Positions 379-6,888 of a stretch of 6,888 bases of DNA are shown piece by piece; the first letter of the stretch is position 1; each line of letters begins with the position of its first letter. The position numbers and the translations under genes were made by a program. The notes under the pieces were generated by a model. It worked only from the letters and a program-made list of their open reading frames with translations, made no database searches and was not told the origin of the DNA. The stretch is from a virus (lineage: Duplodnaviria; Heunggongvirae; Uroviricota; Caudoviricetes), in IMG/VR virus record IMGVR_UViG_2802429219_000013. One strand, 5' to 3'.

Positions 379-801
379 TTAAAACGGTATGTTGTCCCCG
401 TACGGATCATCATTACCCGCCTGTTGTTTTGCCCTGTTCAGCGCGTCAGTAGCCTGGCCCTGTTGACCTTTTTTGCCGCCCGGTCGCGCCGTTCGCGCAC
501 TGATTACGCTGTCTGCGATGACCTGCCAGCCCTGCCGCGTTTCGCCGTTCTGGCCTGTCCACTGGCTTACCTGCATGTTACCCGCCACGCTCACCAGTTC
601 GCCTTTCTGGTGCTTTGCCAGTGCGTCGGCCTGTCTGCCAAACGCCAGGACGGATAACCACATCGTCGCCGTTCCGTCATCTGCCTGGCTGCACGGCAGG
701 GGAACCGCCATACTCGCCATCGCCATTTGTGTCCCCTTGCTGGTGGTCTTTAACTGCGGGTCAGCCACCAGCCGCCCGTAAGCCGCTATCTGTGCTGTCA
801 T
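379..801 (-). CDS. ssb: Single-stranded DNA-binding protein (SSB, OB-fold) with C-terminal ...GDNIPF tip
   Basis: 140-aa ORF. ATG at 801 preceded by GGAGAG about 9 nt upstream. The N-terminal two thirds follow the SSB OB-fold pattern (YGRLVADPQLKTT..., LSVLAFGRQADALAKHQKGELVSVAGNMQVSQWTGQNGETRQGWQVIADSV), followed by a Gly/Gln-rich linker and an acidic C-terminus ending IPF, as in E. coli SSB (DDDIPF). Confidence 0.85.
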   Translation of the reverse strand: MTAQIAAYGRLVADPQLKTTSKGTQMAMASMAVPLPCSQADDGTATMWLSVLAFGRQADALAKHQKGELVSVAGNMQVSQWTGQNGETRQGWQVIADSVISARTARPGGKKGQQGQATDALNRAKQQAGNDDPYGDNIPF

Positions 802-1037: not shown

Positions 1038-3161
1038 TTAATCTTCTTCGCTTTCAGGCTGGAACATCAGCACGTAAAAAACATGCTGCTTCCCCCCAAT
1101 CCTGCCGAGCGCCTTTTTCTTGTAACGGCGATCGTTACCCGCTTCCAGCATTCCGGCAGCACTCAACGCGCGGGCAAAGTGAGACGGATTAAATCCCTGT
1201 GCTATCTCACCCTCAAATACATGCGGGAACGTGTAAAAACGGAACTCGTCATCTTCGTTTCTGATACTCCCCTTTCTGTATCCGGCAAGCTCTTTAATCG
1301 GTAAATCACGCTCGTCGGTGTTGGGCCACGGAAGGTATCTGCTGAATCCAAACGACGCTAAAAAAGCCTCTGCCTGTTCAACCATCTGTTTAAACTCCCT
1401 GTTACCCGTGCCGAATTCCTTCACCCAGGCATTAAAATTATGCTGAATGGCATCGCGGCACGCCTGAACATCCCAACCAGTAATATGGACGGAAAGCACC
1501 AGCGCCGACTCCAGCATGGCGAATCGTTCCCCCACACGGTGAACCTGTTCGCCGTAGCTCTCCGGTATCAGGTTGCGCCACCGTTCACGGCATGCCCTTA
1601 CCGTGTCCTTTGCCTCCTGCTGGTGGTCTGCCAGCCATTTAACCCACTCACGCCCAGCCGCCCCGTGATTTTCTGTCCAGGCATCTTTTAACGCGTCTGC
1701 GTGCGCCTTTCCGGTGCTGTATTCGTGAAATTGCGTGGCTTTTTCCATCGGAACGTTAAGCAGGCGGACAAGCTGCCCCGCTTTGACTTTTATCCCCTCC
1801 GTTTTGAGGAATGTTTCAACGTCCATTTCTCCGGTACTGATTGCCACCGTTCGCCAGTGTTTGATCTCCCGGTTGCCGCCGTCCTTCGCTCCCTGTAATT
1901 TCCCGGAACCGTTAAACAGCGTATAAGCCGATGTGGACACCTCCCGCGCGTTTCCGGCCTGACCTATTTCATCCAGGGGTAATAGCCCGTCATTGTGCGC
2001 CTCTGCCTCGTTGGCGATACCTAACGCCGTGCCGTACCAGGTCAGCCGTTGTGCGTCCGGCTCTCCCCATAAACTGGATGCGATGTTCTGCGTTGTGGTC
2101 TTACCTGCCGATGACTGTTCGAAAAGATGTACCCCGAAGCCGTCAGCACCCACCAGCCCGATTAATGGTGCGGATAACGATACCGCCACACCCAGCATCA
2201 TGGACGGATTACCACCAGCCAGTCGCGCCACGGTATCGCGCCAGCCATCCGCCGTTCCTGCCACGGAATAGCCATTAACGGCAGCCGTTTTTCCGGTAAA
2301 CAGGATCGGTTTTTCAGACTCACCAATGACTGAACCGTCCGGCATGATGTACGCACCAAAATGCCAGCCCGTTGTTGTGCTTAACTGCCATTCCTCATGG
2401 TTTCCGCTTAACTGCATCCAGTCAGCCAGGATAGCCCTGTATTTGCCGTTGGTTGTCACATTCAGTCCGTGGTCTTTCAGCAGCCGCCAGCCGTCACGGT
2501 CGCCAATGCCACCGCACGGAACCGCCATTGTGATGACTTCGTGGTTTGCAGGTTTCTTCCAGCGCATCACGCGGTAATGCTCTTTGCCGATTGTCCCCGT
2601 TCCCAGTAGTTCAAGCGGGGAGCATAACCACGTCTCAGGCCGGATAATTTCGCCTGACTGCTTGTCAACTTTGGGCGTTACCCAGAAAACACCATCGGCG
2701 CGACTTTCAACGCGGGGCTTTAATTCATCATCGCCCTGGCTTTCTGTGATTTTTTTCTTTAAGGGCAACACCAGACTTTCCCCGCGCTCGTATTCGTCTT
2801 TCAGTCGGGCAAGCTGTGGTGTCCAGTCCTCCAGTAAATCGCCGTTCTCGTCACAAAAACAGGCTTCCTTAACACCAGCCGCTGCCAGCAGGGTTTCAAT
2901 CTGTAGCGCCAGTTTGTCATCCAGTTTTCCGGCACGTCTGACGATGGCGCGTGACCGACCATCATCCACAATACGCAGGTTTTCCAGATTACCCAGGTCA
3001 CGCCGTCCGAGATAAACAGGTGGTATTTTGTCGCCGCGCTTTCTGGCTTCTCCGCCCTGCATGTAATGCTCTGCGTGGCTGTATGCGTCATCCCCCGCAA
3101 AAATCACTGCATCCTCGCCTTTATCTTTCGGTAACAGTTTTACGTTCGGTGCCAGTTTCAT
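1038..3161 (-). CDS. Primase/helicase-like replication initiation protein (P4 alpha-like / DUF927-type, assignment from memory) with P-loop-like SAGKTT motif
   Basis: 707-aa ORF, by far the longest in the window. Start ATG at 3161 overlaps the upstream ORF's stop (ATGA) and is preceded by GGGGAAAGG. Contains a P-loop-like motif FEQSSAGKTTTQ near aa 350. Position between the regulatory module and an iteron origin matches replication proteins of int-alpA-pri type satellites. Family call not verified by search. Confidence 0.9.
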   Translation of the reverse strand: MKLAPNVKLLPKDKGEDAVIFAGDDAYSHAEHYMQGGEARKRGDKIPPVYLGRRDLGNLENLRIVDDGRSRAIVRRAGKLDDKLALQIETLLAAAGVKEACFCDENGDLLEDWTPQLARLKDEYERGESLVLPLKKKITESQGDDELKPRVESRADGVFWVTPKVDKQSGEIIRPETWLCSPLELLGTGTIGKEHYRVMRWKKPANHEVITMAVPCGGIGDRDGWRLLKDHGLNVTTNGKYRAILADWMQLSGNHEEWQLSTTTGWHFGAYIMPDGSVIGESEKPILFTGKTAAVNGYSVAGTADGWRDTVARLAGGNPSMMLGVAVSLSAPLIGLVGADGFGVHLFEQSSAGKTTTQNIASSLWGEPDAQRLTWYGTALGIANEAEAHNDGLLPLDEIGQAGNAREVSTSAYTLFNGSGKLQGAKDGGNREIKHWRTVAISTGEMDVETFLKTEGIKVKAGQLVRLLNVPMEKATQFHEYSTGKAHADALKDAWTENHGAAGREWVKWLADHQQEAKDTVRACRERWRNLIPESYGEQVHRVGERFAMLESALVLSVHITGWDVQACRDAIQHNFNAWVKEFGTGNREFKQMVEQAEAFLASFGFSRYLPWPNTDERDLPIKELAGYRKGSIRNEDDEFRFYTFPHVFEGEIAQGFNPSHFARALSAAGMLEAGNDRRYKKKALGRIGGKQHVFYVLMFQPESEED

Positions 3162-3472
3162 TTTGCCTTTCCCCGTTCACGAATAATTTCACGTACTGCC
3201 TTAATGCGTTCCATACCTGTAACGCGCATGATTCTGTCGATGTCGCTTAAGTCCGCTGGTGGTGCTTTGCTTACCAGGGTGAATTCCCTTTCAAAGCGCA
3301 TAAGTGACGACACGCAGGGATGCGCATAACCTTCGCGGATATAGGTCACGCGAAAATCATCGACGGTTTTAATCGTTATCGTGCTGCCGTATTTATCCCG
3401 GAAAATATCGCCGGGGCGGATTTCAGGCCGAGCGGGGCCGCTGGCAGTAAAGCCAGAAATTTTCTGTTTCAT
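3158..3472 (-). CDS. Hypothetical protein (104 aa), translationally coupled to the primase gene
   Basis: ORF MKQKISGF...RERGKAK; its TGA stop overlaps the primase ATG (ATGA, 3158-3161). Starts 5 nt after the stop of the upstream ORF. No family recognised. Confidence 0.7.
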   Translation of the reverse strand: MKQKISGFTASGPARPEIRPGDIFRDKYGSTITIKTVDDFRVTYIREGYAHPCVSSLMRFEREFTLVSKAPPADLSDIDRIMRVTGMERIKAVREIIRERGKAK

Positions 3473-3477
3473 GGTTT

Positions 3478-3705
3478 TTATTCCGCGTTTATTTTTTTAT
3501 CGTGAATTTCGATCGCTTTATTTAATTCGACGATTACCGTATCGAGTAATGAAATAAACGCACCAGCAAGGTTAGATTCACGTTCATCTTCCGGCGCATC
3601 ACTTAAACCATCAAGCCAGATAAGCAATATTTGCCGCAAACATTCACTGTTAGTCAGTGCATGTTCTGCATGGCTCATTGATTTAAAATAACGGTCATCA
3701 TGCAT
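3478..3705 (-). CDS. Hypothetical small protein (75 aa)
   Basis: The track ORF 3478-3750 was trimmed to the internal ATG at 3705, which is preceded by TCAGGGGG with 6 nt spacing and overlaps the upstream ORF's stop by 8 nt (ATGCATGA). Protein MHDDRYFKSMSHAEHALTNSECLRQILLIWLDGL... Confidence 0.55.
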   Translation of the reverse strand: MHDDRYFKSMSHAEHALTNSECLRQILLIWLDGLSDAPEDERESNLAGAFISLLDTVIVELNKAIEIHDKKINAE

Positions 3706-3934
3706 GGTGCGCCCCCTGAATATCTGCGGTAAGAATTTTGCCTGCCTCATTCAGTGCCATATCAGCGGTAAGCTGTGCGTATGCCAGTGAATGCGGGATT
3801 ATCGCCCCTGTATATTCCGGCTCTCTGGTAATGTGTTTTTCTGCGGTTGCTGCTGTGCATGAAATATCAATCAGCGCGTGCATTAGCGTTTTGATGGCTT
3901 CGGCGGCTGCGTCCGGACGGGTGTTATTGCACAT
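3698..3934 (-). CDS. Hypothetical small protein (78 aa)
   Basis: ATG at 3934 preceded by TATTCAGGGGG with 6 nt spacing; 11-nt overlap with the upstream ORF. C-terminus ...ADIQGAHHA is encoded by the reiterated junction element. Confidence 0.55.
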   Translation of the reverse strand: MCNNTRPDAAAEAIKTLMHALIDISCTAATAEKHITREPEYTGAIIPHSLAYAQLTADMALNEAGKILTADIQGAHHA

Positions 3935-4136
3935 GTCTCACCCCCTGAATATTCGCGTTAATCATTCCGGCACGCTCTGCGAGTTCCTGTAATGATTCCC
4001 TTGTTGCGACAATTGCTTCATCTGGCAGGTGGTAATTACACACCACGCGACCTTTATCCACATTGACCAGTAGCTGCCCGGTGAATTTCTCACGAAACTG
4101 AACGCGGTTAAGGTCGGTAAGTGACAGGTTAATCAT
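3924..4136 (-). CDS. Hypothetical small protein (70 aa)
   Basis: ATG at 4136 preceded by TCAGGGGG with 6 nt spacing; C-terminus ...ANIQGVRHVQ is encoded by the junction element. No family recognised. Confidence 0.55.
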   Translation of the reverse strand: MINLSLTDLNRVQFREKFTGQLLVNVDKGRVVCNYHLPDEAIVATRESLQELAERAGMINANIQGVRHVQ

Positions 4137-4332
4137 GGTGTACCCCCTGACGAATACGGGCGGCGAATACCATCACGCAGCCATCAGGAGATTGCTGGCG
4201 TGCTTCCTGTTCGCTGGTGGCCTCGATGTGAATCACGCGCGGTTGTGCGGTGCCCAGGGCGATAAAACGCCAGATGTATTTATTCAGGTTGTGCGAGTCC
4301 CGCCCTTGCGGGTGTGTGGTATGATTTAACAT
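4129..4332 (-). CDS. Hypothetical small protein (67 aa), first gene of the leftward operon
   Basis: Retained 3' part of the implausible 306-aa track ORF 4129-5049. The internal ATG at 4332 is preceded by GAGGT with ~4 nt spacing. C-terminus ...ARIRQGVHHD again comes from the junction element. The antisense + ORF 4135-4329 lacks an RBS. Confidence 0.45.
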   Translation of the reverse strand: MLNHTTHPQGRDSHNLNKYIWRFIALGTAQPRVIHIEATSEQEARQQSPDGCVMVFAARIRQGVHHD

Positions 4333-4428
4333 AGCTACCTCGATACTCTCGTTATCGTTGGTGGTTAGAAGCCCGTTGGTGTTGGTAGCGCCTGCGGGCT
4401 TTGTCTTTTCATCGATTACCTTAATAAA

Positions 4429-4510
4429 GGTGTCAGCCACTATACTAGTAATAGGTGTCAGCCACGTCAATAGTGTTTTTCCATTTTCTTGTGTGTATAC
4501 TGTCAGCCAC
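4429..4510. promoter_or_regulatory. Divergent promoter/operator region with three direct repeats of (G)GTGTCAGCCAC
   Basis: GGTGTCAGCCAC at 4429-4440 and 4454-4465, ACTGTCAGCCAC at 4499-4510. Two TATACT -10-like hexamers (4441-4446, 4496-4501) abut the repeats. A candidate leftward promoter on the minus strand has -35 TTGACG (rc of 4465-4470) and -10 TAGTAT (rc of 4442-4447) with a 17-nt spacer. The candidate rightward -10 at 4496-4501 overlaps repeat 3 and lies about 30 nt upstream of the RHH gene ATG. Confidence 0.5.
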
Positions 4511-4531: not shown

Positions 4532-4711
4532 ATGGCAACGAAAGCAGTTAATGGAAAATCAAAAAAACTTGAGGCACGAGTACCCCATGCAATAGCTGAC
4601 GCTGTAGAAAATTTAAAGGAAGAAGGCGAAAGCACTGGGCAATTTATCGTTTCGGCACTTGAAGGTGAGATCAAACGCCGCCAGCGGCGCAAGGCCAAAG
4701 AGCAGGAATAG
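4532..4711 (+). CDS. Small DNA-binding regulator, ribbon-helix-helix-like (59 aa); candidate repressor of the element
   Basis: ATG at 4532 preceded by AAGGGA about 8 nt upstream. MATKAVNGKSKKLEARVPHAIADAVENLKEEGESTGQFIVSALEGEIKRRQRRKAKEQE has a basic N-terminus, a short beta-strand-like KKLEARVP segment followed by two predicted helices, and a basic tail, consistent with an RHH (Arc/CopG/MetJ-like) fold. The track ORF 4358-4711 was trimmed because its 5' extension runs through the operators and promoters. Confidence 0.6.
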   Translation: MATKAVNGKSKKLEARVPHAIADAVENLKEEGESTGQFIVSALEGEIKRRQRRKAKEQE

Positions 4712-4808
4712 CCAACCAGCAAGCCAGCACACTGATCACATTGCCCACCAGCCGCAAATGTGGCATTGTTGGCGATGCGTTCAAGTTTGATTTGCCGTAA
4801 TACCCACT

Positions 4809-4840
4809 GGCGACCCTTTGCGGTCGCCTTTGTTTTGCTT
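4809..4840 (+). terminator. Rho-independent terminator (likely end of the RHH regulator transcript)
   Basis: Perfect 7-bp stem GGCGACC (4809-4815) / GGTCGCC (4822-4828) with a 6-nt loop, followed by TTTGTTTTGCTT. Confidence 0.55.
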
Positions 4841-4874
4841 GTTATCCGGCAATTGTGGCGCTTCGTCACACGGT

Positions 4875-4883
4875 TGATATAAT
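4875..4883 (+). promoter_or_regulatory. Candidate extended -10 promoter (TGaTATAAT)
   Basis: TG at 4875-4876, one base, then consensus TATAAT at 4878-4883. No good -35, which extended -10 promoters tolerate. Located between two + strand terminators. Confidence 0.35.
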
Positions 4884-4889
4884 TTCCCT

Positions 4890-4960
4890 GCACTGATCCA
4901 TTTTTTTCGCAGCAGGTTAATTGTTCAGAAAGGCGGCTCATTATCGGGGCCGCTTTTTTT
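4890..4960 (+). ncRNA. Candidate small RNA (~70 nt) between the extended -10 promoter and a strong intrinsic terminator
   Basis: Predicted start ~4890 (7 nt after the -10), end at the terminator 4933-4960. No ATG inside the predicted transcript (4890-4960). Purely a prediction from promoter plus terminator geometry. Confidence 0.3.
4933..4960 (+). terminator. Rho-independent terminator
   Basis: Stem GCGGCTC (4933-4939) / GGGCCGC (4947-4953), 7 bp including one G-U pair, with a 7-nt loop, followed by TTTTTTT (4954-4960). Confidence 0.65.
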
Positions 4961-5101
4961 ATGCCTGAAAAACACCAATTTTGTGGTTTTTCAGTTTCAC
5001 CAGGCCGAACGAAGCCCCGCCCCTGTACGGGCGCATATCCAGTATTCATGGTTAGATCTCTGTATTAGTGGATGGGTGGCGGCTGTGTGCCGCCAGCCTG
5101 A

Positions 5102-5290
5102 TTAGTGAACTGCCTCGCAGCTGTCTTTCCATGCCAGAACTTCGGATAAAGACCAGCCAACGGAACGACCGCCGAGCTTACGCCGTGATGGGAATTGTCC
5201 GGCTTTTTCCAGGCGGTACCGACATGAGCGGCTCAGGCCTGTAAGTTGCTGACATTCTTTTTCACGTATAAAGCGATCTGTGCTTAACAC
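5102..5290 (-). CDS. alpA: AlpA-family transcriptional regulator / excisionase-like DNA-binding protein
   Basis: 62-aa ORF; the segment QQLTGLSRSCRYRLEKAGQFPSRRKLGGRSVGWSLSEVLAWK fits the AlpA/phage winged-helix pattern (LTGLSRSTIYRL..G.FP.P.KLG.R.V.W...E...W). Start is GTG at 5290 preceded by AAGGGGGAA with ~4 nt spacing. Same orientation as and downstream of int, as in CP4-57-type elements. Confidence 0.85.
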   Translation of the reverse strand: MLSTDRFIREKECQQLTGLSRSCRYRLEKAGQFPSRRKLGGRSVGWSLSEVLAWKDSCEAVH

Positions 5291-5658: not shown

Positions 5659-6888
5659 TTATATTTCTCTGGCTATTGGCAGTGTGGTTACGTTTTCGTG
5701 AGCACCTGCCAGTATCTCTAATCGCTCTGTCCATATGTCCAACGCACTACGTTTCGCATCGAGATAACGGGAGTGGTTATAGACTCGTTGCATCCCTGGC
5801 ATCTGGTGAGCGGTGAGTTGTTCGACAATATGCGGATCCACGCCTAAATCGTTCAGCATCGTGGTAAACGTGCGCCGTATATCGTGTAGTGACCAGTGCG
5901 GATGGTTTAATTTTTTGTGTGTGAATCTGCCGTATTGCGACACGCTGGCTTCCTGTTTCAGCTCCCCGAGTAATAGCCCTGTGTGTCGGTTCTGCTCCAC
6001 CAGCTGCGTGACGAACGGTAAAATGCTTTCCGGTATTGGCCTGAATATGGCGACCTTCGTTTTGCTGTGTTCTTTCGGTACCGTCCAGAGCATTTCCTTA
6101 AAATCCCACTCCTTGATCTCCGACAGCCTCAGCTCTCCGGTTCGGCAGCCGAACACAATCAGGAGGCGGATTAGTGCGCTGTAGTAGGGTGGGAATATTT
6201 TTTTATCCAGCGCCTGTAATAATTCGCCCAGTTCTTTGTTACTAAGCACGCGTTCGCTTATGCCGGGCTTTTTGCCAACGTCCACTACGTTGAGATCATC
6301 CAGAACGTTACTGACTGCGTAGCGACGTTTACGGCAGAACTTAAGCGCCTGTTTACACGCCTGCATCATGTGACCAGACGTTACAGGGGATTTTTTGCGT
6401 ATCCGGTCAAAACAGGCCAGCCAGTGACGTAACTCGCATTTATCCAGTGGCATGTTACCGATGTGCTGTATGACGTGATTATTAAGGCGGCTTTTCAGGG
6501 AGATGTAATCGACGCGGTTTTCCTTTACGTGCATTTCCAGCCAGTAGCTGATCGCATCGCCCACCGTTACCGGCTTTAGTGCTTCCTGTATGGAGTAATT
6601 AAGCTCATGGCGTGGATTTTTTCCCTCTGCCAGCCATGCGCGACACTGTGCTGCTTTTTCCCTAGCTGCTTTCAGGCTCAGATCTGGATAATTTCCCAGT
6701 TTCAGGCGTTCCGGTGATACCTGGCGTCCTGTTCCTGCCCTGTAGGTGAAATACCAGGTTAATAGGCCGCTGGTGGAGTGTCTGATACTCAGATTTCCAC
6801 CGTCATTAAGAAAGGTGGTTTTTTGGGCTGGTGTGCCGTTGATTTTTCTTAGCTGCGTGTCGCTCAGTTTGTTAAGTGCCCTGCTCAT
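5659..6888 (-). CDS. int: Tyrosine site-specific integrase (P4-type)
   Basis: 409-aa ORF with the tyrosine recombinase catalytic signature in the C-terminal half: R in VFGCRTGELRLSE, HxxR in LHDIRRTF, and the downstream tyrosine region QRVYNHSRYLDAKRS. ATG is at the last bases of the window (6886-6888), so upstream sequence and the att/tRNA side are not visible. Confidence 0.95.
   Translation of the reverse strand: MSRALNKLSDTQLRKINGTPAQKTTFLNDGGNLSIRHSTSGLLTWYFTYRAGTGRQVSPERLKLGNYPDLSLKAAREKAAQCRAWLAEGKNPRHELNYSIQEALKPVTVGDAISYWLEMHVKENRVDYISLKSRLNNHVIQHIGNMPLDKCELRHWLACFDRIRKKSPVTSGHMMQACKQALKFCRKRRYAVSNVLDDLNVVDVGKKPGISERVLSNKELGELLQALDKKIFPPYYSALIRLLIVFGCRTGELRLSEIKEWDFKEMLWTVPKEHSKTKVAIFRPIPESILPFVTQLVEQNRHTGLLLGELKQEASVSQYGRFTHKKLNHPHWSLHDIRRTFTTMLNDLGVDPHIVEQLTAHQMPGMQRVYNHSRYLDAKRSALDIWTERLEILAGAHENVTTLPIAREI

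Follow-up and report, generated by a model that had tools for sequence, protein, structure and literature searches.

Why do three consecutive gene starts in one viral operon carry the same short sequence? The operon lies in a stretch of 6,888 nucleotides (the window, the whole of the DNA that was analysed) from IMG/VR record IMGVR_UViG_2802429219_000013, a virus of the Caudoviricetes, with NCBI assembly GCA_002965785.1 as its source. As the initial annotation had described, five short open reading frames (ORFs) of 67, 70, 78, 75 and 104 aa are packed upstream of a primase gene, on the minus strand. The sequence TCAGGGGG-N6-ATG occurred exactly three times, always on the minus strand (4134-4150, 3932-3948 and 3703-3719), and each copy was a gene start, that of ORF2, ORF3 and ORF4; none was expected by chance in 200 shuffles. 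Judged by its sequence, this junction element is an extended, very strong Shine-Dalgarno (SD) sequence (CAGGRGGUG) placed 6 nt before the ATG. We think it likely that the element acts as a translational-coupling seam and that it is also the site at which small gene cassettes are gained, lost and exchanged. The genes of the operon and the three junctions are:

4129..4332, minus strand: ORF1, 67 aa, Icd-like, the operon's first gene (NF033153; phrog_6196)
3924..4136, minus strand: ORF2, 70 aa, variable cassette (phrog_340, unknown function)
3698..3934, minus strand: ORF3, 78 aa, variable cassette (phrog_5146/2512, unknown function)
3478..3705, minus strand: ORF4, 75 aa, helical family (phrog_2196)
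3158..3472, minus strand: ORF5, 104 aa, DUF4222 (PF13973), with an ATGA overlap with the primase gene
1038..3161, minus strand: DUF927 primase/helicase, 707 aa, the operon's last large gene (PF06048, E 1e-46; phrog_1139, DNA primase)
4134..4150, minus strand: junction 1, TCAGGGGGTACACCATG, the putative SD-N6-ATG of ORF2; ORF1 stop in the 8-nt overlap ATGATTAA; predicted SD duplex -10.8 kcal/mol
3932..3966, minus strand: junction 2, TCAGGGGGTGAGACATG plus a 35-nt tail homologous to junction 3; ORF2 stop in the 11-nt overlap ATGTGCAATAA; predicted SD duplex -15.3 kcal/mol
3703..3737, minus strand: junction 3, TCAGGGGGCGCACCATG plus the 35-nt tail; ORF3 stop in the 8-nt overlap ATGCATGA; predicted SD duplex -9.4 kcal/mol

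The junctions have a common geometry. The SD lies inside the upstream ORF, and the upstream stop overlaps or abuts the next start, at ORF1/2 (8 nt), ORF2/3 (11 nt), ORF3/4 (8 nt) and ORF5/primase (ATGA). The overlapping stop and start codons noted earlier thus held for these four joints and not for ORF4/ORF5, where there is a 5-nt gap and only a weak SD. The 12-mer CCCCCTGAATAT was found at 3712-3723 and 3941-3952, as reported, and the similarity around the first two copies, estimated initially at roughly 70% over about 40 nt, measured 74% over 35 nt (3703-3737 versus 3932-3966, in a repeat scan). The predicted pairing with the 3' tail of 16S rRNA extended over 7-10 bases at ORF2, ORF3 and ORF4 (energies above), compared with -3.5 to -7.0 kcal/mol for ORF5, the primase gene, ssb and ylcI. 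The joint between ORF4 and ORF5 (3473-3482) is a second, different conserved seam (..GGARTAAAAAYMATGAAA, the 5-nt gap, a weak SD, A-rich), and it was kept in most relatives regardless of the allele that precedes DUF4222.

The geometry suggests how the genes could be expressed. The SD falls within the final six codons of the upstream gene, and the stop codon of that gene lies in the opening codons of the next one, as TRA at +5 to +7 or TAA at +8 to +10. In the mechanism we propose, a ribosome ending the upstream gene would halt over the next start site, unfold that site and re-initiate, so that each small gene would be expressed regardless of the sequence to which it is joined. Each cassette carries its own SD, spacer and start, together with an out-of-frame stop for any incoming ORF. 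This principle is generic for compact phage-like operons.

The element is conserved beyond the window. We collected 106 related loci from IMG/VR using ORF2 and ORF3 as queries. Over 107 related loci the exact motif was confined to the operon strand, was always at gene starts, and preceded at least five gene families. Across 70 non-redundant junction classes the consensus was C-A-G-G-R-G-G-T-G-n-r-C-C-ATG-n-n-T-R-A, with an invariant A at +7, and the overlaps were nearly always 8 or 11 nt. Similar junctions were found in two distant elements that have an Icd-like gene. In the 16.5-kb record of the satellite-like vB_KppS-Ant, GGGAGGGGCACCATGCGTGA follows the Icd-like gene. In an Edwardsiella hoshinae element (Icd-like protein 53% identical), AGGAGGTGCGTCATGGC stands at two consecutive junctions and the tails are QEVRHGA* and KEVRHG*; this locus was the sole return with an Icd-like alignment from a scan of genome contigs, in which the peptide patterns were too specific. 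Of the alternatives that the initial annotation had offered for the repeat, the junction sequences favor a conserved translational-coupling element.

Gene content changes at the seam. The window and locus L006 have the same ORF2 and are essentially identical as far as the ATG, differing at only two positions over the final ~60 nt. Past the ATG they are unrelated: the window continues into ORF3 and L006 into an ORF2b-type gene. The window and locus L029 have the same downstream ORF3, and identity starts at TCAGGGGGTG. Among pairs of loci with the same upstream and different downstream genes, 383 of 611 break exactly at +3, right after the ATG (unique junction contexts; the pairs are phylogenetically non-independent). 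Pairs with the same downstream and different upstream genes break mostly between -15 and -1. The same short motif therefore stands at cassette borders and coincides with mosaic breakpoints, as is found for boundary sequences and PeSL-type cassettes (see below). The related loci contained ~17 different cassette adjacencies, in which the seam joined at least six gene families. ORF2 was present in 29 loci and absent from 63 that have a direct Icd-to-ORF3 joint, and the flanks of some loci with and without ORF2 were 95-98% identical. Because the same ~17-nt seam and the same frame relationship are found in all of the small genes, we interpret the seam as the site of cassette gain, loss and exchange. 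ORF2 and ORF3 are variable cassettes in a more constant frame made up of the Icd-like gene, the ORF4 family, DUF4222 and the primase gene.

We considered whether the small genes might instead be diverged paralogues that arose by serial tandem duplication of one gene together with its junction. The 35-nt stretches that lead up to the starts of ORF3 and ORF4 match at 74%, as described above; the tails of ORF2, the ORF2b-type protein and ORF3 share an '...E..(L/I)LT...IQG' pattern; and relatives contain internal tandem duplications and two-domain ORF2 proteins, along with deletion derivatives of these. There are also hybrids in which the N-terminus of ORF2 is fused to the C-terminus of ORF3. However, the homology between ORF2 and ORF3 is limited to the last ~11 codons. 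The two proteins belong to different PHROG families and have no detectable similarity beyond the tail (BLASTP E 0.057, not significant), and whole-gene paralogy was rejected. In addition, six or more unrelated families are linked by the seam, in many orders, as would be expected of exchange between elements rather than of duplication in situ. Of the duplicated junction cassette suggested initially, what survives is the shared ends of ORF2 and ORF3 and a seam that flanks cassettes that are present in some loci and absent from others; the proteins themselves are otherwise unrelated. We consider serial duplication unlikely as the origin of the small genes.

Two models could account for exchange at the seam: recombination would start in the short shared sequence, or selection would keep those joints that recreate the seam. 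Several points weigh against a seam that both couples translation and promotes exchange. The sequence common to different junctions is only ~9-10 plus 4-5 nt, which is short for RecA-dependent recombination, and the sharp breakpoints could equally reflect illegitimate recombination followed by selection for intact coupled joints. The non-independence of the compared pairs bears on the breakpoint counts. The coupling is predicted from the geometry of the junctions, and the ORF4/ORF5 joint, with its gap and weak SD, departs from the design. Conservation of an ATTC upstream of the SD core is not accounted for by ribosome binding alone. Lastly, in a lineage whose DUF4222 protein is ~55% identical, overlapping junctions are mostly a plain ATGA after GGAGGT; the TCAGGGGG/TCAGGRGGTG form is therefore a lineage trait and not a general rule.

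The repeat does not behave like a regulatory RNA. A structured motif, or a target of an antisense RNA or RNA-binding protein, would be comparable to seqA/seqC and the CI RNA of P4, with AUUCAGGGGG as the repeat. The repeat is in direct orientation in a satellite early operon, superficially like seqA/seqC, and its conservation runs the few bases of the ATTC past the SD core. However, the folds were unremarkable: z-scores at the three junctions were -1.4, +0.2 and +2.4, and folding of five junctions gave z-scores of -1.9 to +2.4 with no significant or shared structure. The sequences flanking the ~17 nt are unrelated between junctions, and therefore no common structure is possible. There was no Rfam match at a permissive threshold. 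All copies are direct and there is no complementary copy on the transcript; the sole near-match on the opposite strand is at 6494, in int. The absence of a complementary copy and of an Rfam match also led us to reject immunity by RNA of the P4 type (seqA/seqB/seqC). We regard a regulatory RNA element, the other possibility raised initially, as very improbable.

Conservation is at the level of nucleotides rather than peptides. Three consecutive proteins end in a similar hexapeptide (ORF1 in ...RIRQGVHHD, ORF2 in ...NIQGVRHVQ and ORF3 in ...DIQGAHHA), and the tail itself could have been selected, for example as a degradation tag or an interaction motif. The IQG-type ending reported earlier applies to ORF2 and ORF3; ORF1 has RQG. 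The initial annotation had left it to an alignment of junctions in relatives to decide whether the nucleotide element or the tails are conserved, and that alignment pointed to the nucleotide element. The Icd-like tails alternate between CAGGAGGTG (a canonical SD; ..RIRQEVRHD) and CAGGGGGTG (..RIRQGVHHD), a non-conservative change of residue from Q-G to Q-E in which the SD character is retained. Before the primase gene of many relatives, ATTCAGGGG is read in another frame, as F-R-G. The C-terminus of ORF3 varies with the gene that follows (IQGAHHA*, CENGGGDYAK* or CENGGGYA*), and Icd-like proteins end in one or two residues (D, VQ, A, E) that track the first codons of the next gene. The tail of the AlphaFold model of ORF2 had a pLDDT below 50. 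From the sequences, the (I/R)QGxxH tails are by-products of SD translation because CAG-GGG encodes Q-G and CAT-G gives H. We give even less credence to a functional peptide than to a regulatory RNA.

Least probable of all is programmed frameshifting or slippage on the G run to yield fused proteins: some relatives do have G8 or G9 tracts at the junction of ORF3 with a following gene (X) and real fused ORF3-X proteins of ~150 aa, and phrog_2512 is a 154-aa profile, but the window has only G5 runs, its downstream frame is +1, there is no known slippery heptamer, and every downstream ORF has its own ATG at optimal SD spacing. We observed that the G tract at this ORF3/X seam varies (~G7-G9) in relatives (L009, L024, L031, L033, L034 and others) and that, depending on its length, ORF3 and X remain two overlapping genes, fall out of frame, or encode the single ~150-aa protein. 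Natural slippage, phase variation or errors in homopolymer sequencing could each explain the variation.

Based on these results, the striking repeat has a simple explanation, which should keep it from being mistaken for a regulatory RNA or peptide motif. The nucleotide-exact breakpoints also make the locus a clean natural case for an old question, namely whether conserved boundary sequences are where mosaic joints arise.

All five ORFs are genuine genes, as indicated by purifying selection and by family matches. The median ratio of nonsynonymous to synonymous substitution rates (dN/dS) was 0.23 for ORF2 and 0.25 for ORF3, and dN/dS was 0.13 for ORF4. An independent gene caller found the same five ORFs on the source contig. 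The initial annotation assigned none of the five proteins to a family, but two scored well above the relevant cut-offs. ORF1 matched NF033153 (Icd-like; 70.5 bits, cut-off 25, E 9e-20), and its 174 homologues are mostly annotated as Icd-like. ORF5 matched PF13973 (DUF4222; 71.3 bits, gathering threshold 27), which was present in 120 of 120 homologues among the matches listed for ORF5 (189 found). ORF2, ORF3 and ORF4 matched PHROG families of unknown function. ORF4 also matched two alternative alleles in relatives at 32% identity (E 4e-7 and 9e-7), and divergent alleles of its family usually fill the slot before DUF4222 in most relatives; in vB_KppS-Ant, an ORF4-family lookalike (by eye, unscored) is directly upstream of the primase gene.

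The Icd of phage P1 binds FtsZ and inhibits cell division (PMC11897509). A tblastn search with ORF1 against 50,697 phage records (E <= 1e-3) matched only vB_KppS-Ant and no P1-type phage, and therefore the relationship to P1 Icd is remote, at most at the level of the profile. The same search with ORF2, ORF3 and ORF5 found no match in the 50,697 deposited phage genomes. Sequence searches of the PDB with all five proteins returned nothing usable, and PADLOC gave no match to a defence system. For ORF2, AlphaFold produced a beta-hairpin and a helix at pLDDT 65, too weak a model to search for similar folds. Genes of the ORF2/ORF3 type are thus exchangeable accessories that are found in satellites and not in the phage genomes searched, and are candidates for helper-interference or anti-defence roles.

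The operon is probably the rightward early/replication operon, consisting of the five ORFs, the DUF927 primase gene and the gene for a single-stranded-DNA-binding protein (SSB), of a phage-inducible chromosomal island (PICI) of the AlpA type. Judged from its genes, the window covers the section of such a satellite that runs from int and alpA to the primase and SSB. The int, alpA and primase/replication genes are co-oriented and iterons lie beside the replication gene, as in Gram-negative PICIs. The element adjoins ilvGMEDA, inside a ChlI/ComM-like gene, and the source contig stops at an IS66 fragment just past ssb; the packaging module is out of view because the window is cut after ssb. The remaining features of the window are:

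5659..6888, minus strand: tyrosine integrase, 409 aa (PF13356 and PF00589 on the source contig)
5102..5290, minus strand: AlpA-family regulator, 62 aa (PF05930, E 3e-18)
4532..4711, plus strand: YlcI/YnfO-family small gene, 59 aa, candidate regulator (NF041551, E 4e-17; phrog_949)
4428..4510, no strand assigned: three direct, operator-like GTGGCTGACA(C) copies in the intergenic stretch that separates ORF1 from the divergent YlcI/YnfO gene
4442..4470, minus strand: sigma-70-like promoter candidate, TTGACG-17-TAGTAT, a consensus match only, 110 nt upstream of the ORF1 start
991-1008: two inverted ATAACCCGC copies, beyond the TTTTGCGGGTTAT iterons in the gap between ssb and the primase gene
862-936: four TTTTGCGGGTTAT iterons with 21-nt spacing, between ssb and the primase gene
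379..801, minus strand: SSB, 140 aa (PF00436, TIGR00621)
739, 1619, 3255, 4213 and 6769, plus strand: Chi sites
765, 2150, 2212, 4745 and 5997, minus strand: Chi sites

The candidate promoter for the operon overlaps the GTGGCTGACAC repeats and is divergent to the YlcI/YnfO gene. The repeat scan placed GTGGCTGACA(C) copies at 4428-4449 and 4453-4474 (family D3), and a third copy was read at 4501-4510; these GTGGCTGACA(C) copies cover the -35 of the promoter candidate and also come after its -10. We found no terminator-like sites inside the operon. A protein may bind at the GTGGCTGACA(C) repeats, and AlpA or YlcI may regulate the operon. AlpA is an activator of PICI genes (PMC6092414). We note that the repeats resemble a repressor operator in a type of element said to be controlled by the AlpA activator. 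The ~390-nt gap between alpA and the YlcI/YnfO gene (4712-5101) has no convincing ORF and contains one Chi site, and a strong terminator-like hairpin (4809-4828, plus strand) lies 3' of the YlcI/YnfO gene.

In our working model, a helper phage would activate AlpA (PMC6092414), or repression at the GTGGCTGACAC repeats would be relieved, or both, and the operon would then be transcribed. The Icd-like ORF would be translated first, with re-initiation following seam by seam, so that production of the accessory cassettes would be coupled to that of the ORF4-family protein, DUF4222, the primase and SSB. Replication of the satellite would begin at the primase-side iterons, which by their sequence and position are probably its origin.

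Parts of the element are widespread in E. coli. At least part of the region was found in 1,641 of 5,426 (~30%) complete E. coli genomes, and most of it in four only, a distribution that already shows mosaicism. The best E. coli relative (L001; NZ_CP091700.1) is 95% identical across 82% of the region, and downstream it has genes for PerC, the major capsid protein, protease, portal, connector, HNH and terminase. Capsid-type genes are downstream in both of the nearest relatives, L001 and vB_KppS-Ant; the window itself is without them. The layout of L001 is that of a capsid-forming PICI (10.1101/2022.09.08.507074), and, going by gene content, the closest relatives of the window element are capsid-forming PICIs. 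The L001 element is itself inserted within the large-terminase gene of a prophage (13807-14835 of L001), with a truncated TerL beside the integrase, which is the 'helper-embedded PICI' configuration of PMC10111431. The 'icd' of that paper is the isocitrate dehydrogenase integration site and not an Icd-like gene. Our results provide a practical map of the early operon for a widespread family of E. coli satellites.

The window is unusually rich in Chi. Chi (GCTGGTGG) was the most frequent octamer, with 10 copies in 6,888 nt and 0.23 expected from dinucleotide shuffles. Nine copies were in genes, whereas shuffles of synonymous codons averaged 0.9 and never exceeded 4. The adjacent 5.9 kb of chromosome had two. 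Related satellites (L002-L190) had ~1 Chi per 0.86 kb (878 copies; for octamers of the same composition the median was 14 and the highest count 341), and a more distant lineage had 1 per 3.1 kb, strongly biased toward one strand (116 versus 4). For comparison, Chi occurs once per 4.6 kb in E. coli K-12 and once per 1.86 kb in the 'Chi-abundant' phage LLS (PMC12315714). The literature that we searched made no mention of Chi density in PICIs or satellites. The variable cassettes lie between two of the Chi sites, one in ORF1 and the other in ORF5. The Chi density may be the more interesting lead.

A broader hypothesis, which we hold only tentatively, is that the seam is a standard 'plug' for trading small genes that needs no dedicated recombinase, analogous to integrons and PeSLs; that Chi drives RecBCD/RecA recombination between co-replicating satellites; and that genes of the ORF2/ORF3 type are a shuffled pool of helper-interference and anti-defence functions, co-expressed with an Icd-like division inhibitor and perhaps equivalent to the 'exclusion' locus of E. 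coli ECOR61. We did not find the hallmarks of an integron: there were six long-range inverted pairs (arms 47-765 nt apart), of which one touched junction 2 and none was a compact attC-like site at a cassette end, and the sole integrase is of the phage type (Arm-DNA-bind/Phage_integrase) and not of the IntI type.

Several known systems resemble parts of what we describe. As in classical coupled overlapping genes and icd-ant of P1, the SD lies within the upstream coding sequence, the overlap of start and stop is only a few nucleotides long, and an Icd-like gene comes first. Synthetic 'bicistronic design' junctions likewise have an SD in the upstream coding sequence and an overlapping stop and start. 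If the seam buffers expression against sequence context, it would be a natural counterpart of these engineered junctions. In P1, the downstream ant gene reportedly depends on icd for its expression (PMC8201110). The difference here is that a standard junction is used three times in a row and is common to unrelated genes across many elements, with coupling that is predicted from sequence.

Among mosaic genomes, the boundary ('linker') sequences of lambdoid phages are also short conserved sequences at gene borders that were proposed as points of recombination. In mycobacteriophage Island3 gp67/gp68, the last 18 codons of an inserted gene repeat those of the upstream gene, which was read as recombination between ~50-bp sequences (PMC3029335); the ends of ORF2 and ORF3 present the same situation. 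Most phage joints have no boundary sequence (PMC3029335), whereas here the motif is at nearly every joint, is apparently the ribosome-binding site itself, and belongs to a satellite. The PeSL cassettes of T4-type phages (PMC2839356, PMC4122927) are similar in that the small non-essential ORFs of a hyperplastic region are bordered by a repeated regulatory motif, with modular shuffling at the motif. PeSLs, however, are transcriptional, made up of a promoter and terminator stem-loops. The seam would be translational, within one transcript and without a stem-loop, and we rejected a PeSL model because the junctions had no promoter- or terminator-like site and no stable hairpin.

The element as a whole compares most closely with Gram-negative and capsid-forming PICIs such as EcCICFT073 and EcCIEDL933, which also have int, alpA and primase genes in one orientation and primase-side iterons (PMC6092414, 10.1101/2022.09.08.507074); the window differs in ending after ssb, so that no packaging module is in view. 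The passages searched in these papers do not discuss the small ORFs between alpA and pri, and in the PICI literature that we searched such genes are given as hypothetical. A six-gene 'superinfection exclusion' locus of E. coli ECOR61 has an Icd-like gene and a primase gene, and we liken it to the window by architecture only (10.1101/2023.04.06.535777). That block arrests growth upon expression of a phage accessory protein, with the Icd-like protein as the likely effector (10.1101/2023.04.06.535777). Taken together, these comparisons largely explain the junction element: it combines known kinds of feature, coupled overlapping genes and boundary sequences at mosaic joints, and is not a new class of element.

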